IMG/VR virus record: IMGVR_UViG_3300030107_004497
Reading direction: 5' to 3' (one strand)
Source of the DNA: an uncultured virus (IMG/VR IMGVR_UViG_3300030107_004497)
Lineage: Duplodnaviria > Heunggongvirae > Uroviricota > Caudoviricetes > Crassvirales
Length of the DNA stretch: 20,000 nucleotides
This document shows, in pieces, positions 2-19,498 of the stretch. Position 1 is the stretch's first letter, and every line of letters starts with the position of its first letter. The position numbers and the translations under genes were made by a program. The notes under the pieces are model-generated. The model was not told the DNA's origin and did not search any database. It saw only the letters and a list, made by a program, of their open reading frames with translations.

Positions 2-3000
2 ATGGATGATAAAAAGTTTTTAGAACCAATAGGTGTTATAGATGGAAAATCTTTCAGAGAAATGAAAGGTAAGGAACAACAAACTATTTTAAATCTTGCT
101 ACACTACTTGATAAAACAATGACTTATCAAGCCATTAAAGAGCAAAAGTTAGAAGAAGGATATACACTTGATGATACTAAAACAATTTCTGATGGTGTAA
201 GTGAGTTTTCGTTTAGTAAAGCTGTTAGAAAGCTTAATCCTAGTCAAACTGAAATTTTTTATACAAAACTACCAGAACTTGGTGCCACTGTAAATCCAGC
301 ACTAAAAGATTACACTAAAGTTTCTGAAATGAAAAAAGCTTTAGAAGAGGTTTATGGTAAAGATTTGCCAGCGCCCGTTAAAACAGCTATAGCAAAAGAT
401 TTTGTAGGTTTAATTAAGAGATATCAAAACGTTATCGCTAATAACCAAACTATAGACGAGGGAACTTGGACTGAATATATAGCTGATAGCTTTAATCAAG
501 AGGCTGATAACATAGTTAAAATGCTTAATCTTGAAATTGATGGTAAAAAAATATCCGCCGCTTCTATATATGACAATCAACAAAATATAGAAAGAGGTAG
601 AAGAAAGCTTATTGAATACGGAAATAATCTTGTTAAACAAGGTAAATCTTTAGAGGAGGTTGCTAGAATAATGGCTATACTAAAACCAATGTACGCTGGT
701 AACTCTAAAGTTGGTAGAGGTATGTTTACTACTGACAAGAACGGTAAATTACAAATGGTAGAGGGTATAGAGTTTGGAACTCCTAGAAATCAAATATTTG
801 AAAGTGTGCCTATGTTTGAGAAATGGGGAGTTATGCAAATTGACGGCATGACGCCTGAAATATGGAAAAACGCTAATACAAAACTAAAGGCTCAAAATTC
901 TAAAGCTGCTATAAAAGATAGAGATTTTGACGGTAGACTAGCAGAAGCTAAAGAAGCTAGACAGGTTATAGATAGTATGATGAAATTCTTAAATAAAGAA
1001 GGCAATGATCTTGATATAGCAATGTTTATGATTAGTAATTTATCTAGCATGGACGCTCCGCTTAGAAGAGCAGCTAACTTACAATATATAGCTGATAGCG
1101 TTTTAAACATGGAAGATATAGGGAAAAATGCAGAGTACGAGCATATGATACCAGCTAATTATATGGCTTTAAAAATTATCGACCAATATAAAAACAAAGG
1201 TGGAATAAAAAACTTAGATAATTTTTATAAAAACTACAATGTAGCTATTATACCTAAAACTATGGATAAGGTTTTAAAATTACAAGGATTACAAAGTAAG
1301 ATGATGCCTGGTTATAATTTTGAAACAGACCCATCAACCAATAGATATTATAACTTTTTAACCAATGGTTTTGATGATATAGTTTCTATAAGAGATATTA
1401 ATAGTAACGAAATCGTTGGTCCTCAAGTTCAATATAGTAAAGGTATAAAACAAAACAAAGTGCTAAGCAAAGCTATGCAATTTTCAAAAAAGAAAAACAA
1501 ACCTCGAGGTATTACTGTTTTAGACTTTGATGATACATTAGCTACAACTAAATCTTTAGTTAAATACACAACGCCAAATGGTAAAACTGGTACTTTAAAC
1601 GCTGAGCAATACGCTGCTACTTATGAAGATTTATTAGACAAAGGTTATAAGTTTGATTTTTCAGAATTTAACAAAGTTGTAAAACCACAGTTAGCACCAC
1701 TGTTCAACAAGGCAATGAAACTACAAAAAAAGTTTGGTCCTGAAAATATGTTTGTATTAACAGCTAGACCACCTGCTGCTCAGAAAGCTATATTTGATTT
1801 TTTAAAAGCTAATGGCTTAAATATACCTTTAAAAAATATTACTGGTTTAGGTAATAGCACTAGTGAGGCAAAAGCGCTTTGGATAGCTGATAAAGTTGGC
1901 GAGGGTTATAATGACTTCTATTTTGCAGATGATGCATTGCAAAACGTACAAGCTGTTAAAAATATGTTAGATCAGTTTGATGTTAAGTCAAAAGTACAAC
2001 AAGCAAAACTTCAATTTAGTAAATCATCATTAGATAGTCAGTTTAATAAAATACTAGAAGAATCATCTGGTGTAGGTAGAGAAAAAGAATTTGGTAAAGC
2101 TAAAGCTCAATTAAGAGGTAAAAACAAAGGTAAATTTAAATTTTTCATACCTTATTCAGCGGAAGATTTTAATGGTTTAATGTACGCGATTTTACCCAAA
2201 GGTAAAAAAGGAGAAGAAGCTTATAATTTTTTAAAGAAAACACTTATAGATCCATACGCTAGAGGTTATAGAGACTTAAACGCAGCTAAACAGACTATAG
2301 CAAATGATTACAAAGCTTTACGAAAAGCAATGCCTGATGTTCGTAAAAAATTAACTAAAAAAATACCTAATAAAAAAGACTTTAGATATGCAGACGCTGT
2401 AAGAGTCTACTTATGGGATAAATCAGGTTTTGATATACCTGGTTTATCTGAAACAGATAGAAAGTTTTTAGTTGATTTAATAAATAAAGATAATAAATTA
2501 AAAAGTTATGCTGACGCATTAAGTTTGGTTTCTAAAAGACCAGAGGGATATACCCCACCACAAGAAAATTGGTTAGTAACAAATATACTAGGTGATTTAC
2601 AAGATGCTGTTGATAAAATTGGTAGAAAAGAATTTTTAGCAGAATGGAAGGAAAATAAAGATATTATATTTAGTCCTAAAAATTTAAATAAATTAGAAGC
2701 GGTATATGGTACTAAATATAGAGAAGCTTTAGAAGACATGCTTTTCCGTATGGAAAACGGTACTAATAGAACTAATGGTGATAATAAACTAGTAAACGCG
2801 TTTATGAATTGGACAAATAACTCTGTTGGTGCTATTATGTTCTTTAATACTAGATCCGCTGTACTACAAACATTGTCATCTGTTAATTTTATAAACTGGG
2901 GAGACAATAATATAGCTAAAGCAGCTGTCGCATTTGCTAATCAACCCCAATTTTGGAAAGATTTTGCTACATTATTTAATTCTGATATGTTAAAACAAAG

Positions 3001-4345
3001 ACGTAAAGGATTAAAAACAGATGTTAATCATGCTGAATTAACTGAAGCTGTTGGTAGATCAAAAAACCCAGCTATGGCTGCTTTAAACTACTTGTTACAA
3101 AAAGGTTTTTTACCTACGCAAATAGCTGACAGTTTTGCAATATCTTCAGGTGGTGCTACCTTTTATAGAAATAGAATAAATACTTATTTAAAACAAGGAT
3201 TAAGTCAAAAAGAAGCAGAAGAAAGAGCATTTACTGATTTTCAAGAAATAGCAGAAGCAACACAGCAATCTTCTAGACCAGATTTTATATCACAACAACA
3301 AGCGTCAGCATTAGGTAGGTTAATATTAGCTTTTCAAAATACACCTATGCAGTACATGAGATTAACTAAAAGAGCCATGCAAGATTTAGTTAGTGGAAGG
3401 GGAGATTGGAAAACACACGTGTCTAGAATATTATATTATGGCGCTATACAAAATGTAATATTTTATGCTTTACAACAGGGATTATTTGCTTTAGCTTTTG
3501 ATGATGAAGAAGATGACGAGAAAAAAGCCGCTAAAGAGGAGGAGAAGATGGAGAAAATAATGAATGGTATGCTTGATAGTATATTGAGAGGTATAGGCGT
3601 TGGAGGTGCGGTAGCTTCAACTATTAAGAACATGATAATAAAAATTGGTGAAGAAGATGAAAAAGATTGGAACTCAGACTTTGATAATGTAGTAATTGAA
3701 GGCTTGCAATTATCCCCACCAATAGGATCTAAAGTTAGAAAAGCTAGAAGCGCTGGAAGATCTTATAAATACAATAAAGACGTGATAAAAAACATGAGCA
3801 TGTTTAACATAGACAATCCTGTTTGGGATGTTGTTGGTAATGTAGTATCTTTTAGTACAAATTTTCCTTTAGATAGATATGTAAATAAACATAGAAATAT
3901 TAAAGACGCTCTTGATGATCAAAATGAAGCTTGGCAAAGAGTTGCTTTAATGTTAGGTTGGAATCGCTGGGGATTAGATATGGGTAAACCAGAAGAAGTT
4001 GAGCTTATTAAAACAGAGCTTAAACAAAAAAAGCAAGAACAAAGAAAACAAAAAGAAAAAATAAAAAGAGAGGAAAAGAAAAAAGAAAAAGAAAAAGAAA
4101 ATGAAGCTGTAATAGAAAGTAATAAAGAAAAAAGTAAAAAAGACGGTGTTTGTTCAGCTGTAAGTAAAAGCGGTAAAAGATGTGGTAATTCTGTGGTTCC
4201 TGGAAAATTATTTTGTACTGTTCACGAAAAAGTTGAACAAAGAGCGGGTGGAGAAAAATCTCAATGTAAAAAGATAAAAGGTGATGGTAAAAGGTGTAAA
4301 ATGCAAACTAGTAATAAATCAGGGTATTGCTACTATCACGATTAA
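2..4345 (+). CDS. Giant multidomain (polyvalent-type, probably virion-ejected) phage protein, likely 5'-truncated; contains an HNH-like segment, a HAD-superfamily phosphatase domain, a long helical region and two C-terminal CCCH zinc-finger-like motifs
   Basis: 1447-aa ORF open from the window edge. HAD motifs: VLDFDDTL (1523-1537), VLTARP, EAKA, YFADDA. EYEHMIPA at about 1133-1156. C-terminal CSAVSKSGKRC...FCTVH and CKKIKGDGKRC...YCYYH. Lies upstream of structural and lysis genes. Confidence 0.75.
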   Translation: MDDKKFLEPIGVIDGKSFREMKGKEQQTILNLATLLDKTMTYQAIKEQKLEEGYTLDDTKTISDGVSEFSFSKAVRKLNPSQTEIFYTKLPELGATVNPALKDYTKVSEMKKALEEVYGKDLPAPVKTAIAKDFVGLIKRYQNVIANNQTIDEGTWTEYIADSFNQEADNIVKMLNLEIDGKKISAASIYDNQQNIERGRRKLIEYGNNLVKQGKSLEEVARIMAILKPMYAGNSKVGRGMFTTDKNGKLQMVEGIEFGTPRNQIFESVPMFEKWGVMQIDGMTPEIWKNANTKLKAQNSKAAIKDRDFDGRLAEAKEARQVIDSMMKFLNKEGNDLDIAMFMISNLSSMDAPLRRAANLQYIADSVLNMEDIGKNAEYEHMIPANYMALKIIDQYKNKGGIKNLDNFYKNYNVAIIPKTMDKVLKLQGLQSKMMPGYNFETDPSTNRYYNFLTNGFDDIVSIRDINSNEIVGPQVQYSKGIKQNKVLSKAMQFSKKKNKPRGITVLDFDDTLATTKSLVKYTTPNGKTGTLNAEQYAATYEDLLDKGYKFDFSEFNKVVKPQLAPLFNKAMKLQKKFGPENMFVLTARPPAAQKAIFDFLKANGLNIPLKNITGLGNSTSEAKALWIADKVGEGYNDFYFADDALQNVQAVKNMLDQFDVKSKVQQAKLQFSKSSLDSQFNKILEESSGVGREKEFGKAKAQLRGKNKGKFKFFIPYSAEDFNGLMYAILPKGKKGEEAYNFLKKTLIDPYARGYRDLNAAKQTIANDYKALRKAMPDVRKKLTKKIPNKKDFRYADAVRVYLWDKSGFDIPGLSETDRKFLVDLINKDNKLKSYADALSLVSKRPEGYTPPQENWLVTNILGDLQDAVDKIGRKEFLAEWKENKDIIFSPKNLNKLEAVYGTKYREALEDMLFRMENGTNRTNGDNKLVNAFMNWTNNSVGAIMFFNTRSAVLQTLSSVNFINWGDNNIAKAAVAFANQPQFWKDFATLFNSDMLKQRRKGLKTDVNHAELTEAVGRSKNPAMAALNYLLQKGFLPTQIADSFAISSGGATFYRNRINTYLKQGLSQKEAEERAFTDFQEIAEATQQSSRPDFISQQQASALGRLILAFQNTPMQYMRLTKRAMQDLVSGRGDWKTHVSRILYYGAIQNVIFYALQQGLFALAFDDEEDDEKKAAKEEEKMEKIMNGMLDSILRGIGVGGAVASTIKNMIIKIGEEDEKDWNSDFDNVVIEGLQLSPPIGSKVRKARSAGRSYKYNKDVIKNMSMFNIDNPVWDVVGNVVSFSTNFPLDRYVNKHRNIKDALDDQNEAWQRVALMLGWNRWGLDMGKPEEVELIKTELKQKKQEQRKQKEKIKREEKKKEKEKENEAVIESNKEKSKKDGVCSAVSKSGKRCGNSVVPGKLFCTVHEKVEQRAGGEKSQCKKIKGDGKRCKMQTSNKSGYCYYHD

Positions 4346-6377: not shown

Positions 6378-8975
6378 ATGAAAAAGATTTTAATATTATT
6401 ATTATTACCAGTACTTACCCACGGGCAAGTTATAAATACTTTTCCTTGGACACATGACTTTGATAATAACATAGGATTAGAACAAGACACTAATGATTTT
6501 GGTGATTGGCTCTTGCATCAAGGAACAACAAGTTCTTTTAATACAGGACCAACAGGAGATCATACCACAGGTAATGGTATCTACTTTTATGTAGAGTCTT
6601 CTGGGCAAAACTACGGTGGTAAAGTTTTTACAATATACACACCAATGTTTGATATATCACAAACGCCTGGTAAAGTATTATCTTTTTGGTACCATATGTA
6701 CGGTGCGGCTATGGGCGATTTAGAAATAGGTGTACTAGACAGTGTTGGATATACAGCTTTAGATACTATATCTGGTGACCAAGGTAATAATTGGAAATTA
6801 GCTTATTATCCAATAACAACAAACACACCGTTTAAAATAAAGTTTAAAGCTGTAACTGGTTCTAGTTATACTAGTGATATATCTATAGACGACGTGATGA
6901 TTAGTGATCCGTATACAGTTATATATGGTTGTACTGATACTGTATCATCTAACTATGATTCAACAGCTACGCATGATAATGGTACGTGTATATATGTTAC
7001 AGGTTGTATTGATCCTAGTGCTACTAATTATAATCCATGGGCTAATGTAGATGATGGTAGTTGTATAATGGATATTGCCTGTAACGATTCTATAGAATCT
7101 TTAGTTAATGTGGCAATACTATTAGACAATTGGCCAGGTGAAACATCTTGGGAAATAAAAGCAAACGGAAACGTCATACATTCCGTTGCACAAGGTACTT
7201 ATAGTTACACACAAACAGGACAAACTGTACATACGCAAGTTTGCGTACCTATAGGTGACACAATAGTGTTTACAATTAATGATAGTTACGGGGATGGTAT
7301 TGGAGGTGGTTCTGTAGTTGGTAGTTGTTTAGTAACAAATATAGATTGTCAAGATACTTTATTTTTACTAAATCCACCAAACTTTGGTTATACAGCTTCT
7401 TCTAATCCTTATATATCTGATCAATGTAATAATGATACTATAATATATGGCTGTACAAACTCAAGTTATTTAGAGTATGATTCGCTTGCTACTGTTGATA
7501 ATGGTAATTGTATGACACTAGCTACTTATGGTTGTACTGATTCTACACAATTCAACTACGATCCAAATGCTGACCGCATGTTATTAACATCACCTTGCGA
7601 TTATGATTTAATATTATTTGATGATGGTGGTGATTCTTGGGGTAACTGTTGGTTAGGAGTTTCACAAGGAGATTCATTGTGGCAATTTAAAATTAGTAGT
7701 AATGGTATTTATTCTGATACATTTGCTTTAGAATTAAATTCTTATGATGAAGTATATTTTTATTATTTTGAAATACCTACACCTCAACAAAATCCACAAC
7801 AATTAGATATACAAACTATACAAAACTCTTTCAAACTAGAAAATAGTTACGGTGTAATTATACATGAGGGAAATAACCCTTGGCCTGGTCCAAATGAAAA
7901 TAAACTAAGACACTATGTAAGTGATTTAGATATATACGAAGCTCAACCTTATTGCGGCAATGAATGTATACCAGTTGTTACTGGCTGTATGGATACTTTA
8001 GCTTATAATTACAATCCACTAGCTAATACTAACACAGTGTGCTATTATAATCCTGGTTGTACTAATCCAGGTTATTTAGAATATTATACCCAAGGTTTTA
8101 CCGCTGGTATTGATGATGGTAGTTGTAATACTATAGCTGTGTTTGGTTGCATGGATCCTAACGCTTTTAATTATGACCCTACTGCTAATGTTAGTAATGG
8201 AGGTTGTGTACCAGTTATACTTGGTTGTATGAACGAGTTAGCATTTAATTACAATCCTAATGCTAATACTCCAGACACTTGTATACCTTTAATTTATGGA
8301 TGTACTGACCCAACTATGTTTAACTATTGTGATACTTGTAATACTGATGATGGTAGTTGTTTACCGTACGTATTTGGATGTACTGACTCAACAATGTTTA
8401 ATTTTAATCCATTAGCTAATGCTGACAACGGTTCTTGTATACCTTATATATATGGCTGCACGGATCCTTCTATGCTTAATTATAACTCACAAGCAAACAC
8501 GGAGGATTTTAGTTGTATTCCTTATGTTTATGGGTGTATGGATAGTTTGGCTCTTAACTATGATTCACTTGCTAACACGGATAACGGTTCGTGTATCGAA
8601 ATCATTATGGGTTGCATGGATCCAGGAGCGTATAACTACGAACCAATTGCTAATGTTAACGATACTTTATCTTGTTTATATAGTGCTGGTTGTGTTACTG
8701 GTGCAGGTATACCTTATTGGTTGAATGATCCTTGTTACGCATGGGTGATTGACGTAGATGAATACTGTTGTGAAAACGAATGGGATGAAATATGTCAACT
8801 AACTTATAATTACTGTGATAGCTCTTGGTCTGGACCTATACCAAAAAGAATTTTAAACAAAACATTAATATCTATTACAGATGTTTTAGGTAGACCAACA
8901 AAAGAAAATAAAAATAAACTTTTATTCTACTTATATAGCGATGGCACAGTGGAAAAGAAATTAATAAAAAAATAA
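6378..8975 (+). CDS. Secreted Cys-rich repeat protein: signal peptide + MAM-like domain + 13 GC[TMI][DN] repeats + T9SS-like C-terminal domain
   Basis: Signal MKKILILLLLPVLTHG|Q. MAM hallmarks TGPTGDHTTGNG.YFYVESS, LSFWYHMYG, GDQGNNW, DISIDDV. Repeats GCxD...NY...A..DDGSC. Tail LISITDVLGR...LFYLYSDGTVEKKLIKK. Confidence 0.8.
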   Translation: MKKILILLLLPVLTHGQVINTFPWTHDFDNNIGLEQDTNDFGDWLLHQGTTSSFNTGPTGDHTTGNGIYFYVESSGQNYGGKVFTIYTPMFDISQTPGKVLSFWYHMYGAAMGDLEIGVLDSVGYTALDTISGDQGNNWKLAYYPITTNTPFKIKFKAVTGSSYTSDISIDDVMISDPYTVIYGCTDTVSSNYDSTATHDNGTCIYVTGCIDPSATNYNPWANVDDGSCIMDIACNDSIESLVNVAILLDNWPGETSWEIKANGNVIHSVAQGTYSYTQTGQTVHTQVCVPIGDTIVFTINDSYGDGIGGGSVVGSCLVTNIDCQDTLFLLNPPNFGYTASSNPYISDQCNNDTIIYGCTNSSYLEYDSLATVDNGNCMTLATYGCTDSTQFNYDPNADRMLLTSPCDYDLILFDDGGDSWGNCWLGVSQGDSLWQFKISSNGIYSDTFALELNSYDEVYFYYFEIPTPQQNPQQLDIQTIQNSFKLENSYGVIIHEGNNPWPGPNENKLRHYVSDLDIYEAQPYCGNECIPVVTGCMDTLAYNYNPLANTNTVCYYNPGCTNPGYLEYYTQGFTAGIDDGSCNTIAVFGCMDPNAFNYDPTANVSNGGCVPVILGCMNELAFNYNPNANTPDTCIPLIYGCTDPTMFNYCDTCNTDDGSCLPYVFGCTDSTMFNFNPLANADNGSCIPYIYGCTDPSMLNYNSQANTEDFSCIPYVYGCMDSLALNYDSLANTDNGSCIEIIMGCMDPGAYNYEPIANVNDTLSCLYSAGCVTGAGIPYWLNDPCYAWVIDVDEYCCENEWDEICQLTYNYCDSSWSGPIPKRILNKTLISITDVLGRPTKENKNKLLFYLYSDGTVEKKLIKK
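6927..8675 (+). repeat. Coding repeats of about 25-27 aa (GC[TMI][DN]xxAxNY[DN]xxAxxD[DN]GSC), 13 copies; nine tandem at about 7983-8675
   Basis: Counted in the translation: GCTDT, GCIDP, GCTNS, GCTDS, GCMDT, GCTNP, GCMDP, GCMNE, GCTDP, GCTDS, GCTDP, GCMDS, GCMDP. DNA is diverged at synonymous sites. Confidence 0.9.
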
Positions 8976-12282: not shown

Positions 12283-12477
12283 TTAGAATTGTCTGTTCTT
12301 TTGATCTTGAACCTCAATCCTGACTTCCTGTGCTAGTGATTTAACTAGTTGCATAGCTTTTCTAACTCTCGTTCCTGCAGAGTTATTTCCCTCTACAAAC
12401 TTCGTTACATCAGCTTGACAGTCATTAACAGCATCTTGTAGATCGTCAAACAATCCGTTTAATTTATTAAAACTCAT
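12283..12477 (-). CDS. Histone H1-like Hc1-family small protein (short form, no Lys-rich tail)
   Basis: KFVEGNNSAGTRVRKAMQLVKSLAQEVRIEV matches the GNxxAGTRxRK helical-hairpin signature of Hc1-like proteins of Chlamydia/Bacteroidota. Confidence 0.75.
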   Translation of the reverse strand: MSFNKLNGLFDDLQDAVNDCQADVTKFVEGNNSAGTRVRKAMQLVKSLAQEVRIEVQDQKNRQF

Positions 12478-13212: not shown

Positions 13213-15087
13213 TTATAAGCCTGTTATTTCACAAGATCCACCGGCACAGGCTAACTCACCAGATAGATTTGTTTCGTCAGTTTCTTCAATGATATTAGAC
13301 AAGTCTATTTCATTTAAAGACTTAACTCTTTTACTAAACTCTGTTTTTGTAATATCTTCAAACGGAGCTTGAGTATACGTTCCACCATCATAAGGTAAAA
13401 CTGATAAACCATTATAACACTCTCTATTTTCCCACATCCACTCACCAGCTTTTTTCCAATCACCTTCTTTTAAACTAATTGTTGCAGACACATTGTGAGT
13501 ATTGGATCCTTTACGGTGTCCAGGTTTAACCCATTCGGTAGCAACTTTTTTAACTCTTTTAAGTAAGTCAAAAGCAGACTCAGTTCTTAATATTGAACCT
13601 TTTGGAGCTGATTGTGGTATTTCAATAACAGCAGTATCATGTGGTCTAAAGTATTCGTCCTGTATTAAATCAGGATTATTTTTCTTTAAGTAACTATATA
13701 TAGGTTCATTTTTACCTACACGTAGTCTACGTATATAATAATCATTATGCCAAGCGTGGATACCTGAAGATGTACCAAGTACTAATGAAGTTGTTCCAGC
13801 TGGTTTAACACAAGTAGTTCTAGCTGCTTTGTTTATTCCTATTAACTTTGCTACTCTTGTGTTTTCTCTTTTTACTATACTTGCAGCTGCCTTCATATCC
13901 AGCGGGAGCACAGCGGCACTCCCTATTCCTGTCATTGACACACCTATAAGCGCGTCTTTCTCTGTTGTTTCTTGCCATATTTCTCTTAGATAGTGGAATT
14001 CCGTATAACCTGCTTGAAGCGTGCCAATAAAAGCCGCAGCTTTCACTCTATTATTTAGCTCTTCTTGGCTTGTGACGTCACTTACATTAACTTCGCACAA
14101 GTTACAGAACTGATATGGGCGTAAAGCTATTTCACAACAAGGATTAGTACCCCAATCTTTATCGTGATTAAAATATATACCAGGCTCACCAGCTCCGGAT
14201 AATTCAATACGTTTCCACAAATCTAAGAAAAACTCTTTTGTTATTTTATGTCTCATTAATACAGCAGAATTGTTAGCTCTACCTCTTTGTGGGTTTGTTT
14301 CCCACCAACTACCTGATTTACAGGATATCATTTCCTCATCATACGCGCTAAATAGCGATATAAGCGCGGCTCTTCGGATTCCTCCAGCAAGAACAGCATC
14401 TGCAATGTGGCAGATAATATCATGGACTTCAAGCGTTGTAAGTTGTACGCCATCTTCTTTTGCATCTAATATTCCTTTAATTTTTACTAAACATTCTTTT
14501 AATGGTTGTGGCCCTGGAGCTTTTCCCCCTGAGGTCACAAGTCTTGCTCCCTTTGGTCTAATATCCGAATAATCAAATTTTATCTTAGATGATCTCTTAG
14601 AGCCCAAATAAGACTTAATTAAAACCTTTACAGCATCTGACCAACCTTCAATACTATCACCAATAACAAATCTCCGTGTTCTTCCTTGAAAAGGTTTAGT
14701 TACATGAGGGAGTTTTTGTACGTGATGATTCTGCACTGAATAACCAACTCCGCAGCCAGATAAAAGCAAAAACATGCACTCACTAAAGCTATCAGTATGA
14801 TCAATAGGTAAATAACTACAGTTGTACAATCTGTTGGGAGATATCTCAATAGGTTTCCCGCTAAATTGTAACGAACGCATAGACGGTAAAACTTTCTTAT
14901 CATAAACGTATTTATAAGTTAATTGTATTTGATCTGTTAATTTTGGATATCTTTTTTGATGCATTTCCTTATTTCTCGTGACTAGTTCCTCCCAAGTTTC
15001 TCTTCTATTTAACTCAGGTATAAACTTAGCATACTTCATGTAGACTGTTAAGTCCGAAAGTATTTTTTTATTTACATCTTTATTCAT
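13213..15087 (-). CDS. nrdJ: Class II (adenosylcobalamin-dependent) ribonucleotide reductase
   Basis: LPSMRSLQF, YNCSY, GCGVGYS, GGIRRAALI, active-site TNPCCEI, CNLCEVN, KPAGTTS, and C-terminal redox tail ELACAGGSCEI. No nrdB-like small subunit is adjacent. Confidence 0.9.
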   Translation of the reverse strand: MNKDVNKKILSDLTVYMKYAKFIPELNRRETWEELVTRNKEMHQKRYPKLTDQIQLTYKYVYDKKVLPSMRSLQFSGKPIEISPNRLYNCSYLPIDHTDSFSECMFLLLSGCGVGYSVQNHHVQKLPHVTKPFQGRTRRFVIGDSIEGWSDAVKVLIKSYLGSKRSSKIKFDYSDIRPKGARLVTSGGKAPGPQPLKECLVKIKGILDAKEDGVQLTTLEVHDIICHIADAVLAGGIRRAALISLFSAYDEEMISCKSGSWWETNPQRGRANNSAVLMRHKITKEFFLDLWKRIELSGAGEPGIYFNHDKDWGTNPCCEIALRPYQFCNLCEVNVSDVTSQEELNNRVKAAAFIGTLQAGYTEFHYLREIWQETTEKDALIGVSMTGIGSAAVLPLDMKAAASIVKRENTRVAKLIGINKAARTTCVKPAGTTSLVLGTSSGIHAWHNDYYIRRLRVGKNEPIYSYLKKNNPDLIQDEYFRPHDTAVIEIPQSAPKGSILRTESAFDLLKRVKKVATEWVKPGHRKGSNTHNVSATISLKEGDWKKAGEWMWENRECYNGLSVLPYDGGTYTQAPFEDITKTEFSKRVKSLNEIDLSNIIEETDETNLSGELACAGGSCEITGL

Positions 15088-15221: not shown

Positions 15222-15668
15222 TTATTTATTTTTATTTAATATTAATTCTATTACTTTGTCACATTCCTTCTGGTTTTGAGGTTTATATAAAGTTACATGT
15301 TTCATCTTATGATTTACATATTTTTTAAACATTTTCCAACGTATTGGGAAGCTTTCGTTAGCTCTACCTTTACATTCAATTATAAATGAATCACTTACAA
15401 AATCAGGCGTATATTTAATTGGTAATATCTTTTTACAACCTCTATTTACCATCTCACCTTTACCATTGCTTTGTCTTTCATAACTTTCGTTTTCAAACTG
15501 AAAACCTTCTTGTAAAGTAAACGTACACCCTTCGTATACAGCGTGTATTTTAGCTTTCTTTAATGCTTGATACATATAACGTTCTAAACCTGAAGCAAAT
15601 TGTATCCCGTCGAATGTGACTTTTTTTGCTCTAACAGGACCACGTTTGCGTTTATATTTCTTCTTCAT
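15222..15668 (-). CDS. PD-(D/E)XK nuclease, T7 endonuclease I-like (resolvase/host DNA degradation)
   Basis: FASGLE...ALKKAKI...YE...YTPDFV...IIECKG matches the T7 gp3-like pattern (FRSGLE/YTPDF/ETKG). Start placed at MKKKYKR (15668) rather than 15710. Confidence 0.8.
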   Translation of the reverse strand: MKKKYKRKRGPVRAKKVTFDGIQFASGLERYMYQALKKAKIHAVYEGCTFTLQEGFQFENESYERQSNGKGEMVNRGCKKILPIKYTPDFVSDSFIIECKGRANESFPIRWKMFKKYVNHKMKHVTLYKPQNQKECDKVIELILNKNK

Positions 15669-16002
15669 CGTCGTAATAAGATTCACGGTTATAATCAACA
15701 TAATTATCATCCCTATGTCTATCTATTAACGCTTCTTCAGATAAGTCTTGCAACTCTTCGCGTGCAGCTTGTATATATAATATTGCATCCATTAATTCTT
15801 CTTGAACATCATTTAAATACTTAGTCAAGCCTTTCATTTTAAGTCTACGTTCATCATCTAATGTTGACCCATATTTTTCAAAACCAATATCTGATCTCTC
15901 AACAAATTTATCTACAACGTGTCTAACCACTGGGTCTCTAAACCCATATGATTTTCTTGAATCTATACCATTTTTGGCATCCATAATTTCTCTACTACTC
16001 AT
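15652..16002 (-). CDS. Hypothetical phage protein, possible all-alpha NTP pyrophosphatase-like
   Basis: RSDIGFEKYGSTLD...YLNDVQEELMDAILY carries an acidic EExxD helix. It neighbours the MazG-domain gene. Confidence 0.5.
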   Translation of the reverse strand: MSSREIMDAKNGIDSRKSYGFRDPVVRHVVDKFVERSDIGFEKYGSTLDDERRLKMKGLTKYLNDVQEELMDAILYIQAAREELQDLSEEALIDRHRDDNYVDYNRESYYDDEEEI

Positions 16003-16004
16003 AA

Positions 16005-16844
16005 TTAATCTTTTTTAAATGTTCCATTACTCATTTTACCTGTTCTATCTTTTATTTCGTTGTATGCTTGTGCTATACACTCTTCTATTGACGTGCCACA
16101 GAGATGCGCTAAATTAGTTAATACAACTACACAATCACCAATACCATCTATAATTTCTGGTTCATCTTTTTTAAGCACAGCTCTACATATTTCGCCAGCT
16201 TCTTCCATGAGTTTTAATGTTTGTGTTTTAGGATCACCTTTATGATACAATCCTCTTTCTTCAGCCCAAGTTCTAATTAAATCAAAATGACTTGCTTTTC
16301 CATTAGACTTTCTACCATCAGCGCCAACTGGAAACAAACCTCCAGTTCTAGGATACTCATCTCTTACGTGTAAATCTGCTAAAGTCTTATAAGCATCGTT
16401 ATTGTCAAACCACCTAGCAAATGCTTTGTTATATATATAACATCTTTCTGGATTGTACTTAGAGGTTACTACATTTTTCATTATCCATTTTATAGACTCC
16501 TTAGTAATAATACAGCTTCCGTGTTCTGTCTCCCATTTCATATTTTTATTATCCATAAGTTGTCCTTTTAGTTTATTAATAGGACATGGAAATGTTGTTG
16601 TTTGTTCTGTTACGTTTATATTCATGTTATTAAATTTAAGTTCATTATAAGGTACTTCGTCTACTTTGTAGCCGTAGCACTTTTGCATTATTATTTCACC
16701 TTTTGATATAAAATCTATATCATCAGATGTTTCTATTATTTCGTATTCACCTGGATAATAACCTTGTTGCTTGTGAACACGCTCTTCAAGATTAGTTGTT
16801 ACACCAATCTTTTTTCCTGGTATATGATATATATAATATGTCAT
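16005..16844 (-). CDS. Fusion: N-terminal GIY-YIG-like domain + unknown middle + C-terminal MazG-like nucleotide pyrophosphohydrolase
   Basis: N-term YYIYHIPGKKIGVTTNLEERVHKQ...YEIIE...E. C-term IRTWAEERGL...QTLKLMEEAGEI...IIDGIGDCVVVL...AYNEIKDRTG carries the MazG EExxE/DxxxD motif. Confidence 0.75.
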   Translation of the reverse strand: MTYYIYHIPGKKIGVTTNLEERVHKQQGYYPGEYEIIETSDDIDFISKGEIIMQKCYGYKVDEVPYNELKFNNMNINVTEQTTTFPCPINKLKGQLMDNKNMKWETEHGSCIITKESIKWIMKNVVTSKYNPERCYIYNKAFARWFDNNDAYKTLADLHVRDEYPRTGGLFPVGADGRKSNGKASHFDLIRTWAEERGLYHKGDPKTQTLKLMEEAGEICRAVLKKDEPEIIDGIGDCVVVLTNLAHLCGTSIEECIAQAYNEIKDRTGKMSNGTFKKD

Positions 16845-17497
16845 ATTTTATCATTATATAAATGCATGTTATGCGCAAAATGATAATATACACCATTGTT
16901 AATATTTAGTTTTTTTGCAACCATAGCTTGTAACATTGAAAAACAATATTGATCATTACAAAAACCATACCATAAATCATTTGAACGCATAGTCACGCAC
17001 ATTTCTAATCTATTATTTATTATTGTAAATTGTACAGCGTAAGTACATGGTGTATCATGACTATAATCATCAATCTCTTTACCGTCATATATAGATATTG
17101 CACATTGTCTGTTGTCAGGATTGTCTTGTAACATTTGTATTACTCTATCTAGTTGACCATTACGCTCCCATTGGTAACCATAGTTAGAGTTTACATTGCC
17201 TTTACCATCAGCCATACGTTTCCATATCTCAGGCACTTTACCATATATATCTCCTAATGTATTTATATTAGGATCACCAGTTAAATACCATTGCCATTCA
17301 GCTTCAGCGTAATCTTGCTTCCAAGCTCTTTCTCTATTTATTATTTTATTATCTGTAGGGTTTGTTATATAAAAACCCACATTAAATAAAGCTTTTGTAT
17401 CACCAAAACTTACCCCTTCTTGTAATATTTTATCGTGTAAATACTCATAAGCTTCATTTGCATTCCTAAATATTTTATTATTTATTGTATTTATCAT
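16841..17497 (-). CDS. Thymidylate-synthase-fold pyrimidine-modifying enzyme, dCMP hydroxymethylase (T4 gp42)-like
   Basis: NSNYG, catalytic DTPCT, MRSNDLWYGFCND and HNMHLY. The residue equivalent to E. coli ThyA Asn177 is Asp. Confidence 0.8.
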   Translation of the reverse strand: MINTINNKIFRNANEAYEYLHDKILQEGVSFGDTKALFNVGFYITNPTDNKIINRERAWKQDYAEAEWQWYLTGDPNINTLGDIYGKVPEIWKRMADGKGNVNSNYGYQWERNGQLDRVIQMLQDNPDNRQCAISIYDGKEIDDYSHDTPCTYAVQFTIINNRLEMCVTMRSNDLWYGFCNDQYCFSMLQAMVAKKLNINNGVYYHFAHNMHLYNDKI

Positions 17498-17504
17498 GTT
17501 TTTA

Positions 17505-17783
17505 TTATCCTTTATCGTTTGTATTTGGTTTGTAATAGTGTTTATAATATTCTAAAAACTTATCATAAACATTTTCGTCTTCATATTTACCTGGGTCTGT
17601 GTGTGTTTTATTATTTATATGTATATCTATTTTCCACCGATTCATATCATCTTTCCAATCAGGATGTATACTTACGCTAACACCTCTGTTTATACACCAA
17701 CCAATCATTTTTATTTCTTCTGGACTCCAACTTCTTGTAGGTGGCTTTTTACTTGGTGATTTTTGCCATCTTTTAAAAGCCAT
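17505..17783 (-). CDS. Hypothetical protein
   Basis: 92-aa ORF with TAATG overlap to the primase-helicase stop, in operon orientation. Confidence 0.65.
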   Translation of the reverse strand: MAFKRWQKSPSKKPPTRSWSPEEIKMIGWCINRGVSVSIHPDWKDDMNRWKIDIHINNKTHTDPGKYEDENVYDKFLEYYKHYYKPNTNDKG

Positions 17784-19498
17784 TATGATTCCCAGGGCAT
17801 TGGTTCACCGTCTTCAACTAATGTTTCGTGCGGTATAAAACTACCAGATCTAGGCTCCCAAGTAAAATGAGCTTCAGCTCCATTTTCACCTAAATTTTGA
17901 AATTTAACTTTAAGCACTTTAACTTTTGTTGTTTTTGCTTCGTAGTCTCTATGTACCAATAATCCATGGTAACTAGCATCGTACCATTCACCACCTCCTT
18001 TGATATTGTACATTGTTGGTTCTTCAATTTTTCCATCTTGTGTTTTATACATTTTAGTTGGATGTGCTACAATAAATGTAAGTACATCATATTTTTTACA
18101 AAAAGCTTCTATTTTAGCTAAATAATCCATAGTATAACGATTCACATCATCTGATTTAGCATCTACATCTCTAATTTTATTAAATGGATCAAGTACTAAA
18201 CATTTAATACCTTTACGCTTAACTAATTCAGCACCTTTACGTAACACGGCTTCTAAGCTATATTTATCCATATCAATAAAAAAATAATTATCATTAACAT
18301 GATTAGTTACTTGCTGCCATTTATCATTACCAATATCATCTGTTCTAGGCATATCTTGCCAATGTTTACGCATTAGTTTATGAGCATGTAAATATACCGG
18401 TTGATTTTCTGGACTTGCATACGCAGTTTTCCAACCATAGTTATTGTTATAACCAACAACCATTTGATCAACAAAGTCAGACTTACCAGAACTAGGAATA
18501 CCAGTAACAGTAATAAACTGACCAGTGTAAGTACTAAATATTTTATCAAAGTTTTTAAGTCCAATTTGATAACCGGGTTTAAAACCGTTTTTAACAAAGT
18601 CTCTAAGCTCATCTTCTACATCTTTTAATGTTGATACGTTTTCTAATGGTACAGGTCGCGCGGTATGTATAGCATCACGCAGTGATTCAGCGCCATGTTC
18701 TAATAAATAGTCGTTAGCATCTTTATTACCGTTAAAATCTATTATATAACAGACTTCAGCACCAAGACGTCTAACAAGCTCACGTTGCAACATTTGACCA
18801 GGTTCATCAGCATCAACAGCTAATATAATTCTAGTCTTATCATCAAAATAATCTATACAATTATCTAAGTAATCAAGATTATTATTGTTTAATGTAGCAC
18901 CATTGGGTACTGATATTGCATTTGGTACTCCAGCTTCATGTAATGCTAACACATCCATTTCGCCTTCAACTATAACACAAGTATCATAACCTACAATACT
19001 ATTAATATTATAAAATACTTTTTCAGCACCTTTAAATAACTTAAAGTTTTTTCTACCATCTCTGTATTTTACGTTAATCAATTGATCACCCATAAAATAA
19101 TTGAACTGAATAGTATTCTCTTGTTTACCTGTCTGAGGCATAAACTCAGGACCTTCAGAAACCTGAAGATCTCTAAGTGTTTGTTTTGATATACCTCTTG
19201 TACCGAACCATGTTTCAACATTCGTACTTACCTCGTTAAAGTTGGCCGGCGTTTCCGGTCTAACATAGACACGTTCGCTACTGCCCTTGCGTTGATAAGT
19301 ATGAAGTTGAAAAGTAGTATTACAGTTGTGACAAGTACCGAGACCACGTTCCCAATCATAGCTAGCACATTGTGCTTTCTGGTTCTTAGGTTTCCTAGTA
19401 TGCGAACACAGAGGACAAACCCCCTGTGTTGCATTTTCTTTTAGGCTATGTTGATTGAATTTATCAATCAAAAATCCATTGATCTCCTCTACACTCAT
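17783..19498 (-). CDS. Bifunctional DNA primase-helicase (T7 gp4/Twinkle-like)
   Basis: Zn ribbon CPLC...CHNC. TOPRIM motifs IVEGEMD, DADEPG, KDAND. SF4 helicase Walker A TGIPSSGKS, Walker B LVLDP, and IVAHP. Confidence 0.93.
   Translation of the reverse strand: MSVEEINGFLIDKFNQHSLKENATQGVCPLCSHTRKPKNQKAQCASYDWERGLGTCHNCNTTFQLHTYQRKGSSERVYVRPETPANFNEVSTNVETWFGTRGISKQTLRDLQVSEGPEFMPQTGKQENTIQFNYFMGDQLINVKYRDGRKNFKLFKGAEKVFYNINSIVGYDTCVIVEGEMDVLALHEAGVPNAISVPNGATLNNNNLDYLDNCIDYFDDKTRIILAVDADEPGQMLQRELVRRLGAEVCYIIDFNGNKDANDYLLEHGAESLRDAIHTARPVPLENVSTLKDVEDELRDFVKNGFKPGYQIGLKNFDKIFSTYTGQFITVTGIPSSGKSDFVDQMVVGYNNNYGWKTAYASPENQPVYLHAHKLMRKHWQDMPRTDDIGNDKWQQVTNHVNDNYFFIDMDKYSLEAVLRKGAELVKRKGIKCLVLDPFNKIRDVDAKSDDVNRYTMDYLAKIEAFCKKYDVLTFIVAHPTKMYKTQDGKIEEPTMYNIKGGGEWYDASYHGLLVHRDYEAKTTKVKVLKVKFQNLGENGAEAHFTWEPRSGSFIPHETLVEDGEPMPWES

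Follow-up and report, generated by a model that had tools for sequence, protein, structure and literature searches.

The 20,000-nucleotide stretch of the uncultured virus IMGVR_UViG_3300030107_004497 (hereafter the window) carries an open reading frame (ORF) on its minus strand (16841..17497, ATG start, 218 aa) whose product has the thymidylate synthase (TS) fold, and the question raised by this locus is whether the enzyme produces thymidylate or modifies cytosine nucleotides. As an earlier note on the sequence anticipated, automatic pipelines treat it as thyA: the JGI names given to the listed relatives are all 'thymidylate synthase', and PHROG 160, which the protein matches (E 8.7e-40), bears the same name. 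That note proposed an enzyme that acts on deoxycytidylate (dCMP) at C5, and all computational tests that we ran, on residues, tree, and structure, support this proposal. Based on these results, the protein is likely a minimal, 218-aa dCMP 5-hydroxymethyltransferase of the T4 gp42 type, which together with a coupled MazG pyrophosphatase would lead to phage DNA containing unglycosylated 5-hydroxymethylcytosine (5hmC).

The predicted active site is formed by three motifs, all read on the minus strand. The RSNDLWYGFCND motif (16952-16987, residues 171-182) lies where the earlier note had placed it; Arg171 and Ser172 correspond to the residues for the phosphate and deoxyribose, Asp174 is the equivalent of E. 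coli D169, and, after Gly178, Asp182 aligns with E. coli N177 as the dCMP selector. The DTPCT motif (17042-17056, residues 148-152) includes Asp148, the equivalent of E. coli L143 and of the water activator Asp145 of T4, as well as the catalytic Cys151 and Thr152 (E. coli H147). The NSNYG motif (17177-17191, residues 103-107) provides Ser104 (T4 Ser94) and Tyr106 (T4 Tyr96, E. coli Tyr94), both of which hold the catalytic water. The PCT at the catalytic Cys and the NSNYG had likewise been recognized, and the reference motifs given there were accurate: the record of E. coli ThyA reads RSCDVFLGLPFN, and T4 gp42 reads RSNDVVFGFRND, MCT, and NSNYG according to the record sequence, the alignment, and the HMMER match to PDB 1b49.

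The protein matches Pfam PF00303 (E 1.4e-27), and the same 12 active-site residues are retained in 118 of its 120 closest database relatives; therefore, the motifs are not due to chance. Its C-terminus lies four residues past the H-x-Y, without the tail that seals the active site of ThyA, a tail that T4 dCMP hydroxymethylase (dCH) also lacks. This short length does not reflect truncation, because the 120 closest relatives are typically 218 aa long as well and the next gene starts in overlap with the stop codon. In the profile and phylogenetic comparison that the earlier note had called for, all eight NCBIfam TS equivalog models scored far under their cut-off (79.7 bits at best versus 327), and the clade of the query stood apart from ThyA and SPO1 gp29. 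Additionally, the best PDB sequence matches found with HMMER were MilA (1.4e-17) and T4 dCH (1.6e-17), with any ThyA at 2.8e-15 or weaker.

To compare the diagnostic positions, the query and 12 reference proteins from annotated records were aligned with MAFFT L-INS-i and numbered according to E. coli ThyA (L143, C146, H147, S167, D169, and N177). The query reads D, C, T, S, D, and D at these positions, as does T4 gp42, which produces 5-hydroxymethyldeoxycytidine (5hmdC). E. coli ThyA, the enzyme for thymidine (dT), reads L, C, H, S, D, and N; SPO1 gp29, which produces 5-hydroxymethyldeoxyuridine (5hmdU), and the TS-like protein of PaMx11 both read D, C, N, S, D, and N. The ThyA of PaMx74, a 5-methylcytosine (5mC) phage, reads N, C, P, S, D, and D, and RB69 gp48, which produces 5-hydroxydeoxycytidine (5hodC), reads E, C, T, S, N, and D. 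Among the product classes compared, the query is thus identical over the six positions to T4 gp42 only.

As reported in passages of PMC13326640, N177D causes a preference for dCMP, L143D/E accompanies hydroxymethyl rather than methyl products, and D169N marks the flavin-dependent 5-hydroxy-dCMP synthases, nine further D169N homologues having all made 5hodC. Positions 177 and 147 were the most modification-associated among 433 metavirome TS sequences (PMC8670742, in part), and, as cited in the corresponding parts of PMC13326640 and PMC8670742, swaps of residue 177 switch substrate specificity both ways, a rule derived from mutagenesis in 1992. From these residues we infer the substrate and product of the enzyme. 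The earlier note had left the product as hydroxymethyl, methyl, or hydroxy; hydroxymethylases are recognized by an Asp in place of L143 and by the Ser equivalent to T4 Ser94, and both residues support the hydroxymethyl product, while the hydroxy product is disfavored by the retained D169, and the methyl product is improbable as well. Collectively, the residue rules behind the predicted enzyme activity have been tested, which makes the prediction a strong one by computational standards.

The catalytic site was further mapped onto T4 dCH. In a part of the study on its ternary complex, the S94, Y96, and D145 mutants lose or nearly lose activity; D145N abolishes it, and Asp145 activates the incoming water (PMC6400193). 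As judged from the alignment, all T4 residues that are mutationally required for hydroxymethylation are conserved in the query, which keeps the catalytic and hydration residues S94, Y96, D145, C148, T149, and D179 as well as the core folate and nucleotide contacts E60, Y56, I81, W82, D171, H216, Y218, R123', R168, and S169, with F174 replaced by Tyr. In query numbering, the folate core consists of E67, Y63, I91, W92, D174, and Y177, and the tail contacts are K60, A66, and C180. The T4 residues that differ (K28 to T, N53 to K, R59 to A, V85 to M, R124 to Q, S144 to H, R177 to C, and R220 to D) are for the most part contacts at the surface to the glutamate tail of folate, plus a single phosphate ligand. 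Deoxyribose is selected by Ser167 and Arg126', in place of which MilA has Ala and Lys (PMC5175136, in part); the query has the deoxyribose-preference residues, Ser172 and Arg130. Moreover, E67, Y106, D148, C151, R171, S172, D174, G178, D182, H212, and Y214 are invariant in an alignment of 77 sequences.

A phmmer search of 1.84 billion cluster representatives returned 8032 matches at E 0.001 or better, and the residue census was taken on the best 150 of these 8032, of which 113 are at least 185 aa long. Within this set, Asp occupies position 177 in 113/113 long representatives, and the full T4 signature is present in 101 of them; 11 deviate at one of positions 143, 147, and 167, and one row is misaligned. 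In the IQ-TREE phylogeny of 58 rows (13 named proteins and the first 45 of the 113 representatives), the query falls within a supported clade of 21 short enzymes (96/88), including copy b of the Bacteroides phage BF486P2, and a six-row clade containing T4 gp42 is supported as well. E. coli ThyA pairs with PaMx74 (100/99) and SPO1 gp29 with PaMx11 (100/98), both elsewhere in the tree; T4 gp42, RB69 gp48, and BF486P2 copy a lie on long branches. The AlphaFold2 model of the enzyme has a mean predicted local distance difference test score (pLDDT) of 96.1 and a predicted template modeling score (pTM) of 0.92. In Foldseek searches against the PDB, MilA was the top match (template modeling (TM) score 0.88), T4 dCH reached 0.76-0.79 and many ThyA structures about 0.78-0.80, and 9iqc, a flavin-dependent dCMP monooxygenase, ranked 30 by E-value (TM 0.87 on the query, 0.81 on the target). 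Judging from these models, the fold alone cannot separate the TS subfamilies, whereas the residues do.

Comparison with known systems places the protein close to T4 gp42 (PDB 1b49, 1b5d, and 6a9a), with which it shares the fold, the six diagnostic residues, S94/Y96/D145/C148/D179 and the core folate site, the lack of a ThyA-type tail, and a nucleotide pyrophosphatase gene in the same genome (gp56 dCTPase in T4). In contrast, the two proteins are only about 24-25% identical, their lengths are 246 and 218 aa, and the contacts to the folate glutamate tail differ; the marine lineage consists of podophages of Flavobacteriia-type hosts rather than T4-like myoviruses, and their MazG fusion is unrelated in sequence to gp56; in the members searched, the deoxynucleoside monophosphate (dNMP) kinase, polymerase, glucosyltransferases, and C-DNA nucleases were undetected. 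The closest cultured homologue belongs to BF486P2 (45.8% identity over 96% of the query, 226 aa, RSND..YGFCND, same clade), which together with the Bacteroides fragilis phages BF494P1 and BF503P carries a second TS-like gene annotated as deoxycytidylate 5-hydroxymethyltransferase. This group differs in having two TS-like genes and a dUTPase and in that the BF486P2 genome still purges CTAG and GATC; our literature search found no paper on the DNA chemistry of BF486P2, BF494P1, or BF503P. Homologues in Enterococcus phage VPE25 and Lactobacillus phage ATCCB have the same six-residue signature at 34-35% identity, although they are 269-281 aa long, lie beside a beta-glucosyltransferase gene, and belong to another clade of the tree. 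VPE25 also has its own kinases and Pol III alpha, while its restriction-site profile is the same as that of the marine lineage.

As a separate observation, a protein of Agathobaculum phage AB434P2 (OP172633.1 3838-4500) that is annotated as 'deoxyuridylate hydroxymethyltransferase' has Asp177 and the full T4 gp42 signature; by these residues, the substrate given in the annotation is probably wrong.

By homology with T4 gp42, the following mechanism is proposed. Cys151 would add to C6 of dCMP, and Asp182 would read and protonate the N3/N4 edge of cytosine. Methylene-tetrahydrofolate, activated via Glu67, would give its one-carbon unit to C5, and a water molecule positioned by Ser104 and Tyr106 would take away the C5 proton. 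Since the protein has neither the C-terminal tail that seals in the folate nor the hydrophobic Leu143 of ThyA, water activated by Asp148 would then attack the exocyclic methylene, yielding 5-hydroxymethyl-dCMP and tetrahydrofolate rather than a methyl product and dihydrofolate. As the most economical guess, the coupled MazG pyrophosphatase would remove dCTP and regenerate dCMP. Host kinases would phosphorylate 5-hydroxymethyl-dCMP, and the host replicase would build it into phage DNA; both host activities are invoked because the phage lineage encodes neither. The outcome would be 5hmC DNA without glycosylation, which the majority of type II restriction enzymes are unable to cut.

The proposed partner gene lies directly downstream (16005..16844, minus strand) and encodes a 279-aa fusion protein with a C-terminal MazG-type nucleoside triphosphate (NTP) pyrophosphatase domain (PF03819, E 7.4e-07, residues 206-267; PHROG 1992, E 1.2e-36). 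It is translationally coupled to the enzyme gene, the stop codon of the one and the start codon of the other sharing an ATGA, and a MazG gene occupies this place in 71 of the 74 related loci with room for one. The N-terminal region of about 185 aa gives a weak T5orf172/GIY-YIG-like lead, T5orf172 occurring in 11-14% of the members of look-alike clusters, and a sequence search of the PDB returned only a marginal MazG-like match (1vmg, E 0.031). The fusion is a candidate dCTPase, although this role is a guess. Compared with Elemovirus, which has the same order of Erf, exonuclease, primase/helicase, and DUF1064 without TS, MazG, or ribonucleotide reductase, the genes form an inserted cassette. 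The enzyme gene is absent from 7/7 more distant relatives (elemoA, the spring-water phage MW202828, Panino, phi38:1, Calle_1, phi13:2, and Gundel_1), while two complete marine genomes chosen by TerL alone (75-80% TerL identity) carry it. The TS-MazG cassette is therefore specific to this lineage.

To examine the DNA itself, palindrome counts were compared with maximal-order Markov expectations, and C/G-containing 4-bp palindromes were regarded as depleted when the expectation was at least 10 and the observed/expected ratio (O/E) was below 0.5. The set comprised the seven complete carriers of the enzyme gene (G001-G007) and six gene-less TerL relatives, Calle_1 being omitted owing to its close relationship to phi38:1; for T4, 34 kb of sequence were counted, and for VPE25, the first 50 kb. 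None of the 12 C/G-containing 4-bp palindromes was depleted in any of the seven carriers, and in the window only TCGA was (5 versus 11.3 expected). In contrast, five of the six gene-less relatives had two to six depleted 4-bp sites, given here as observed/expected: six in elemoA (NC_055852.1; CATG 3/150, GGCC 0/24, CCGG 0/12, CGCG 0/13, GATC 53/190, and CTAG 73/181), three in Panino (PP540027.1; GATC 0/263, CCGG 0/78, and CGCG 0/21), two in MW202828 (MW202828.1; GATC 0/201 and CCGG 0/26), and two each in phi38:1 and Gundel_1, with none in phi13:2. Between 0 and 2 of the 240 non-palindromic 4-mers fell under an O/E of 0.5. The difference between the carriers (0/7) and the gene-less relatives (5/6) has a Fisher p of 0.005; however, since the carriers form one clade, this contrast counts as one evolutionary observation. 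As an aside, the extreme purging in elemoA, Panino, and MW202828 suggests that Flavobacteriia hosts exert strong pressure through type II restriction.

These patterns can be related to enzymes assayed on 5hmC DNA. According to parts of PMC7653180, the 5hmC DNA of T4gt resists 186 of 227 enzymes; it is uncut by HaeIII, MspI, NlaIII, MboI, DpnII, Sau3AI, BstUI, HhaI, AluI, BfaI, and HpyCH4IV and fully cut by EcoRV, TaqI, and NdeI, and glucosylated T4 DNA is cut only very partially by EcoRV. The enzymes for the sites purged in the gene-less cousins (HaeIII, MspI, NlaIII, MboI/DpnII/Sau3AI, and BstUI) are thus ones that do not cut 5hmC T4gt DNA. In four of the seven carriers (G001, G002, G006, and G007), GATATC is the strongly purged 6-mer, the observed/expected counts among these four being 1/19, 1/18, 0/16.5, and 1/18.5; in the window and in three complete carriers, no 4-mer palindrome is lower than TCGA, and CATATG is at 0/11.7 in G002; these lows agree with the cutting of 5hmC DNA by EcoRV, TaqI, and NdeI. 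VPE25, whose DNA resists bisulfite conversion and is thus cytosine-modified (PMC4999554, in part), served as a control: none of its 4-mers is purged, and among its 6-mers only GATATC (0/15.6) is. In the 34 kb of T4, GATATC is at 2/9.9 and GATC at 35/110.

A side observation is that GATATC, the site of one of the few enzymes reported to cut 5hmC DNA completely, is the one 6-bp palindrome whose strong purging is common to three unrelated groups of phages whose DNA is known or predicted to be of the 5hmC type (VPE25, T4, and the marine carriers). Such purging is possibly a general footprint of 5hmC genomes, though some unmodified phages purge the site too.

Several observations weigh against the proposed 5hmC DNA, and the most important concerns the rest of the genome, for which IMG/VR relatives were used as stand-ins for the source genome. 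The enzyme has 528 relatives in IMG/VR, and many of the contigs that encode them measure 57-79 kb; one of these, G001 (66.9 kb), aligns colinearly with the window with 65-85% identity of the DNA, and its 79 ORFs include TerL, portal, GroEL/ES, Erf, exonuclease, and sigma factor. The dNMP kinase and glycosyltransferases that the earlier note suggested looking for were not found: Pfam and PHROG scans of the 79 ORFs of G001 revealed no glycosyltransferase and no nucleotide kinase family, where a divergent unannotated kinase is possible, and six-frame searches found thymidylate kinase PF02223 in 0/5 complete relatives. PolA and PolB are absent from the same 5/5 relatives by six-frame search, and none was found in G001. 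The T4 pathway includes a dedicated dNMP kinase, gp1, and the failure to find a counterpart leaves the largest gap in the case for incorporation of 5hmC. Furthermore, in the in vivo assays described in part of PMC13326640, the synthase alone gave only trace incorporation. VPE25 carries its own kinases, polymerase, and glucosyltransferase, next to which the toolkit here is much thinner. At the protein level, the folate-tail and phosphate contacts R59 (A), R177 (C), R220 (D), R124 (Q), and K28 (T) are not kept, the node joining the query clade to the T4 gp42 clade is weak (86/61), and the MazG protein showed no BLASTP similarity to T4 gp56 or to the PaMx74 pyrophosphatase (PaMx74_53).

The site statistics are also open to objection. 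The carriers and their gene-less cousins differ in their hosts, and phi13:2, which lacks the gene, is likewise without a purged 4-mer. BF486P2, which has the closest cultured homologue, purges CTAG (0/83) and GATC (7/130), which indicates that the T4 signature does not always accompany a loss of site avoidance. G003-G005 and the window (4 versus 6.6) show no purging of GATATC, and three gene-less phages purge it too. Moreover, GGTACC is low in G001 (4 versus 17.6) and G002 (1 versus 9.3), although KpnI/Acc65I do not cut 5hmC DNA.

Other products of the same fold were weighed against this evidence. A dCMP C5-methyltransferase, i.e., a 5-methyl-dCMP synthase as in Xanthomonas phage Xp12 or Pseudomonas phage PaMx74, would produce 5mC DNA; PaMx74 was used as the 5mC reference in place of Xp12 (MT664984). 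It shares Asp177 with the query, and its gene also adjoins a pyrophosphatase gene; in addition, KpnI cuts the 5mC DNA of Xp12 and not 5hmC DNA (PMC7653180, in part), in line with the low GGTACC in G001 and G002. We nevertheless regard 5mC as improbable: PaMx74 has N and P at 143 and 147 and Ala at the T4 Ser94 position, whereas the query has D, T, and Ser like T4 gp42, in which D145N, by replacing the water-activating Asp145, abolishes activity (PMC6400193, in part). Its ThyA pairs with that of E. coli, far from the query; its type of module contains dihydrofolate reductase (DHFR) and dCMP deaminase, neither of which is present in the five complete relatives; and the query ends without the C-terminal tail by which ThyA closes off its site when hydride is transferred. 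Six-frame searches found no DHFR in 5/5 complete relatives, which fits a reaction that does not oxidize folate, and for dCMP deaminase only one sub-threshold stretch with internal stops in the five; the ORF scan of G001 likewise showed no DNA methyltransferase, DHFR, or deaminase. A flavin-dependent 5-hydroxy-dCMP synthase (RB69 gp48, DLP3 gp80, or HY126 type), the entry to glycosylated 5-hydroxycytosine, seems very unlikely. Such synthases resemble the query in being short and without the folate-sealing tail, 9iqc is the best size-matched structural match, and Asp177, Thr147, and an acidic residue at 143 are common to the query and RB69 gp48. However, instead of the D169N exchange, the query has Asp174, invariant in the 77 relatives; RB69 gp48 has lost the equivalents of W80, G173, and Ile81, all of which the query keeps; and no sugar-nucleotide or glycosyltransferase genes were found in G001.

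The remaining candidates concern substrates other than dCMP and the fate of the product. An ordinary TS, a dUMP hydroxymethylase acting on uracil nucleotides, or a MilA-like CMP hydroxymethylase would agree with the Pfam, PHROG, and JGI labels, with MilA as the nominal top PDB match, and with the gene content: where the earlier note had suggested a search for a separate ThyA or ThyX, six-frame searches found one TS homologue in each of the 5/5 complete relatives, no ThyX, and no alternative thymidylate route. These options are hardly tenable, given that the query has Asp at 177, where E. coli, SPO1, and PaMx11 have Asn, and that swapping this residue reverses specificity (as cited in parts of PMC13326640 and PMC8670742). 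An ordinary TS is further opposed by the low scores of the eight equivalog models and by the D, D, and T residues and lack of a tail, and a MilA-like enzyme by the residues that confer its ribose preference, Ala176 and Lys133 (PMC5175136, in part), where the query has Ser172 and Arg130 like T4 dCH and ThyA. A more serious candidate, though still unlikely, is a dCMP hydroxymethylase that serves to manipulate nucleotide pools or modifies the DNA only partially, host kinases and polymerase handling 5-hydroxymethyl-dCMP poorly. It would account for the ORF scans of G001, which revealed no phage dNMP kinase, polymerase, glycosyltransferase, or C-DNA-specific nuclease, for the trace incorporation by a synthase alone (PMC13326640, in part), for the accessory nature of the cassette, absent from the 7/7 more distant relatives, and for the site avoidance that BF486P2 still shows. 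In contrast, 7/7 carriers lack the avoidance of 4-bp palindromes that 5/6 cousins display, and they match the pattern of cytosine-modified VPE25, including the purged GATATC in four; the retention of the cassette in 71/74 loci and of the active site in 118/120 relatives indicates strong selection.

For the T4-gp42-type hydroxymethylase with unglycosylated 5hmC DNA, the extent of replacement is a further question. We infer genome-wide replacement of C, as well as incorporation itself, from the enzyme together with the k-mer contrast, and the absence of kinase, polymerase, and glycosyltransferase weakens this step. That a very abundant lineage of ocean flavobacterial podophages fully replaces C by unglycosylated 5hmC with two dedicated genes, for the minimal hydroxymethylase and the coupled MazG pyrophosphatase, plus host kinases and polymerase is accordingly a tentative proposal, somewhat less probable than not. 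If true, it would be the smallest known genome-wide base-replacement system and would show how little a phage needs for base replacement; the purged GATATC would then be the trace of the one common type of host enzyme to which this DNA is still susceptible. Modified cytosine is a known anti-restriction trick, here stripped down. A phage group that appears in thousands of marine metagenome contigs would have 5hmC DNA, which would affect the recovery of such phages by some library and enzyme-based methods as well as host restriction and modification-dependent defenses in ocean Flavobacteriia. Since the gene is uniformly labeled thymidylate synthase in public annotation, surveys of auxiliary metabolism would be mistaken in scoring it as thymidylate synthesis.

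The Asn177-to-Asp rule is known from earlier publications, where it has served to screen metaviromes (MetaGPA, Yang et al. 2021, PMC8670742) and IMG/VR (bioRxiv 10.1101/2024.12.05.627091), in both cases for uncultured phages, including a coastal sample; these reports center on deaminase-linked 5mC modules and a carbamoyltransferase, whereas the marine lineage has no deaminase. Our literature search, of partial coverage, found no paper naming this marine lineage or its DNA chemistry, or 5hmC in marine flavobacterial phages. New here are the comparison of restriction sites between carriers and gene-less cousins, the use of VPE25 as a control, and an explicit list of the partner genes that were looked for and not found. 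The contrast between carriers and gene-less relatives provides a cheap computational screen for other predicted base-modifying phages, and BF486P2 shows that it is not decisive.

Regarding the origin of the window, sequence comparisons indicate a marine podophage lineage related to phages of Flavobacteriia, which agrees with the suggestion of the earlier note of a non-T4-like phage with a Bacteroidota-type host. The primase/helicase and TerL match only phages of Cellulophaga, Flavobacterium, Tenacibaculum, Maribacter, and Riemerella in addition to uncultured records, and megablast of the whole window against cultured phages gave no match. Because of these matches and a gene for a histone H1-like Hc1 protein, the host is probably a member of the Flavobacteriia. 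The Hc1 gene (12283-12477, minus strand; 64 aa; PF07432, E 5e-19) belongs to a family typical of Chlamydia and Bacteroidota, and its product may compact or mark DNA.

The enzyme and MazG genes belong to a minus-strand string in the order primase/helicase, 92-aa protein, enzyme, MazG fusion, 116-aa protein, DUF1064 protein, and ribonucleotide reductase. The primase/helicase at its head (17783..19498) has Toprim and DnaB-like domains (PHROG 239, E 1.1e-86), with phi10:1 of Cellulophaga as the closest cultured match (41%). The ORF for the 92-aa protein (17505..17783), located between the primase/helicase and enzyme genes, had no family match in Pfam or PHROG scans. The next operon gene after MazG (15652..16002) encodes a conserved helical protein of 116 aa that is present in 68/74 related loci, with 24 residues invariant across 22 relatives. 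This protein had no Pfam match, PHROG matches only of unknown function, no relationship to the MazG protein at the profile level (hhalign probability 0.1), no PDB sequence match, no Foldseek match at E 0.001 or better, and only nameless atlas clusters; its AlphaFold2 model is of low confidence (pLDDT 68.4, pTM 0.38). A role as a second NTP pyrophosphatase is not supported by these results. The downstream edge of the inserted cassette relative to Elemovirus is marked by a DUF1064/Holliday-junction-resolvase-like protein (15222..15710; Pfam, PHROG), which is followed by a class II ribonucleotide reductase of the B12-dependent type (13213..15087; PHROG 367, E 1.9e-133; Pfam RNR-II insertion domain) that supplies deoxynucleotides.

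Further observations concern the virion and accessory proteins. G001 encodes two giant virion-type proteins of 2292 aa (16694-23572) and 3166 aa (28938-38438), and the window begins with the last 1447 aa of a protein of the 2292-aa type (2-4345, plus strand). The 3166-aa protein contains a crAss-virus muzzle C-terminal domain (PF25729, E 7e-07), and a nearby 230-aa protein matches the SU10 adaptor, linking these marine podophages of roughly 67 kb structurally to crAss-like and SU10-like phages. The window also encodes an M15 endolysin and an 865-aa protein (6378-8975, plus strand) with an N-terminal MAM domain (PF00629, E 2.5e-23), mostly a eukaryotic adhesion domain; this protein may be a receptor-binding or tail protein. 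Finally, G001 carries GroEL (PF00118, E 5e-52) and GroES at 53456-55018 and 53212-53469, as well as a second GroES-like protein of 196 aa.

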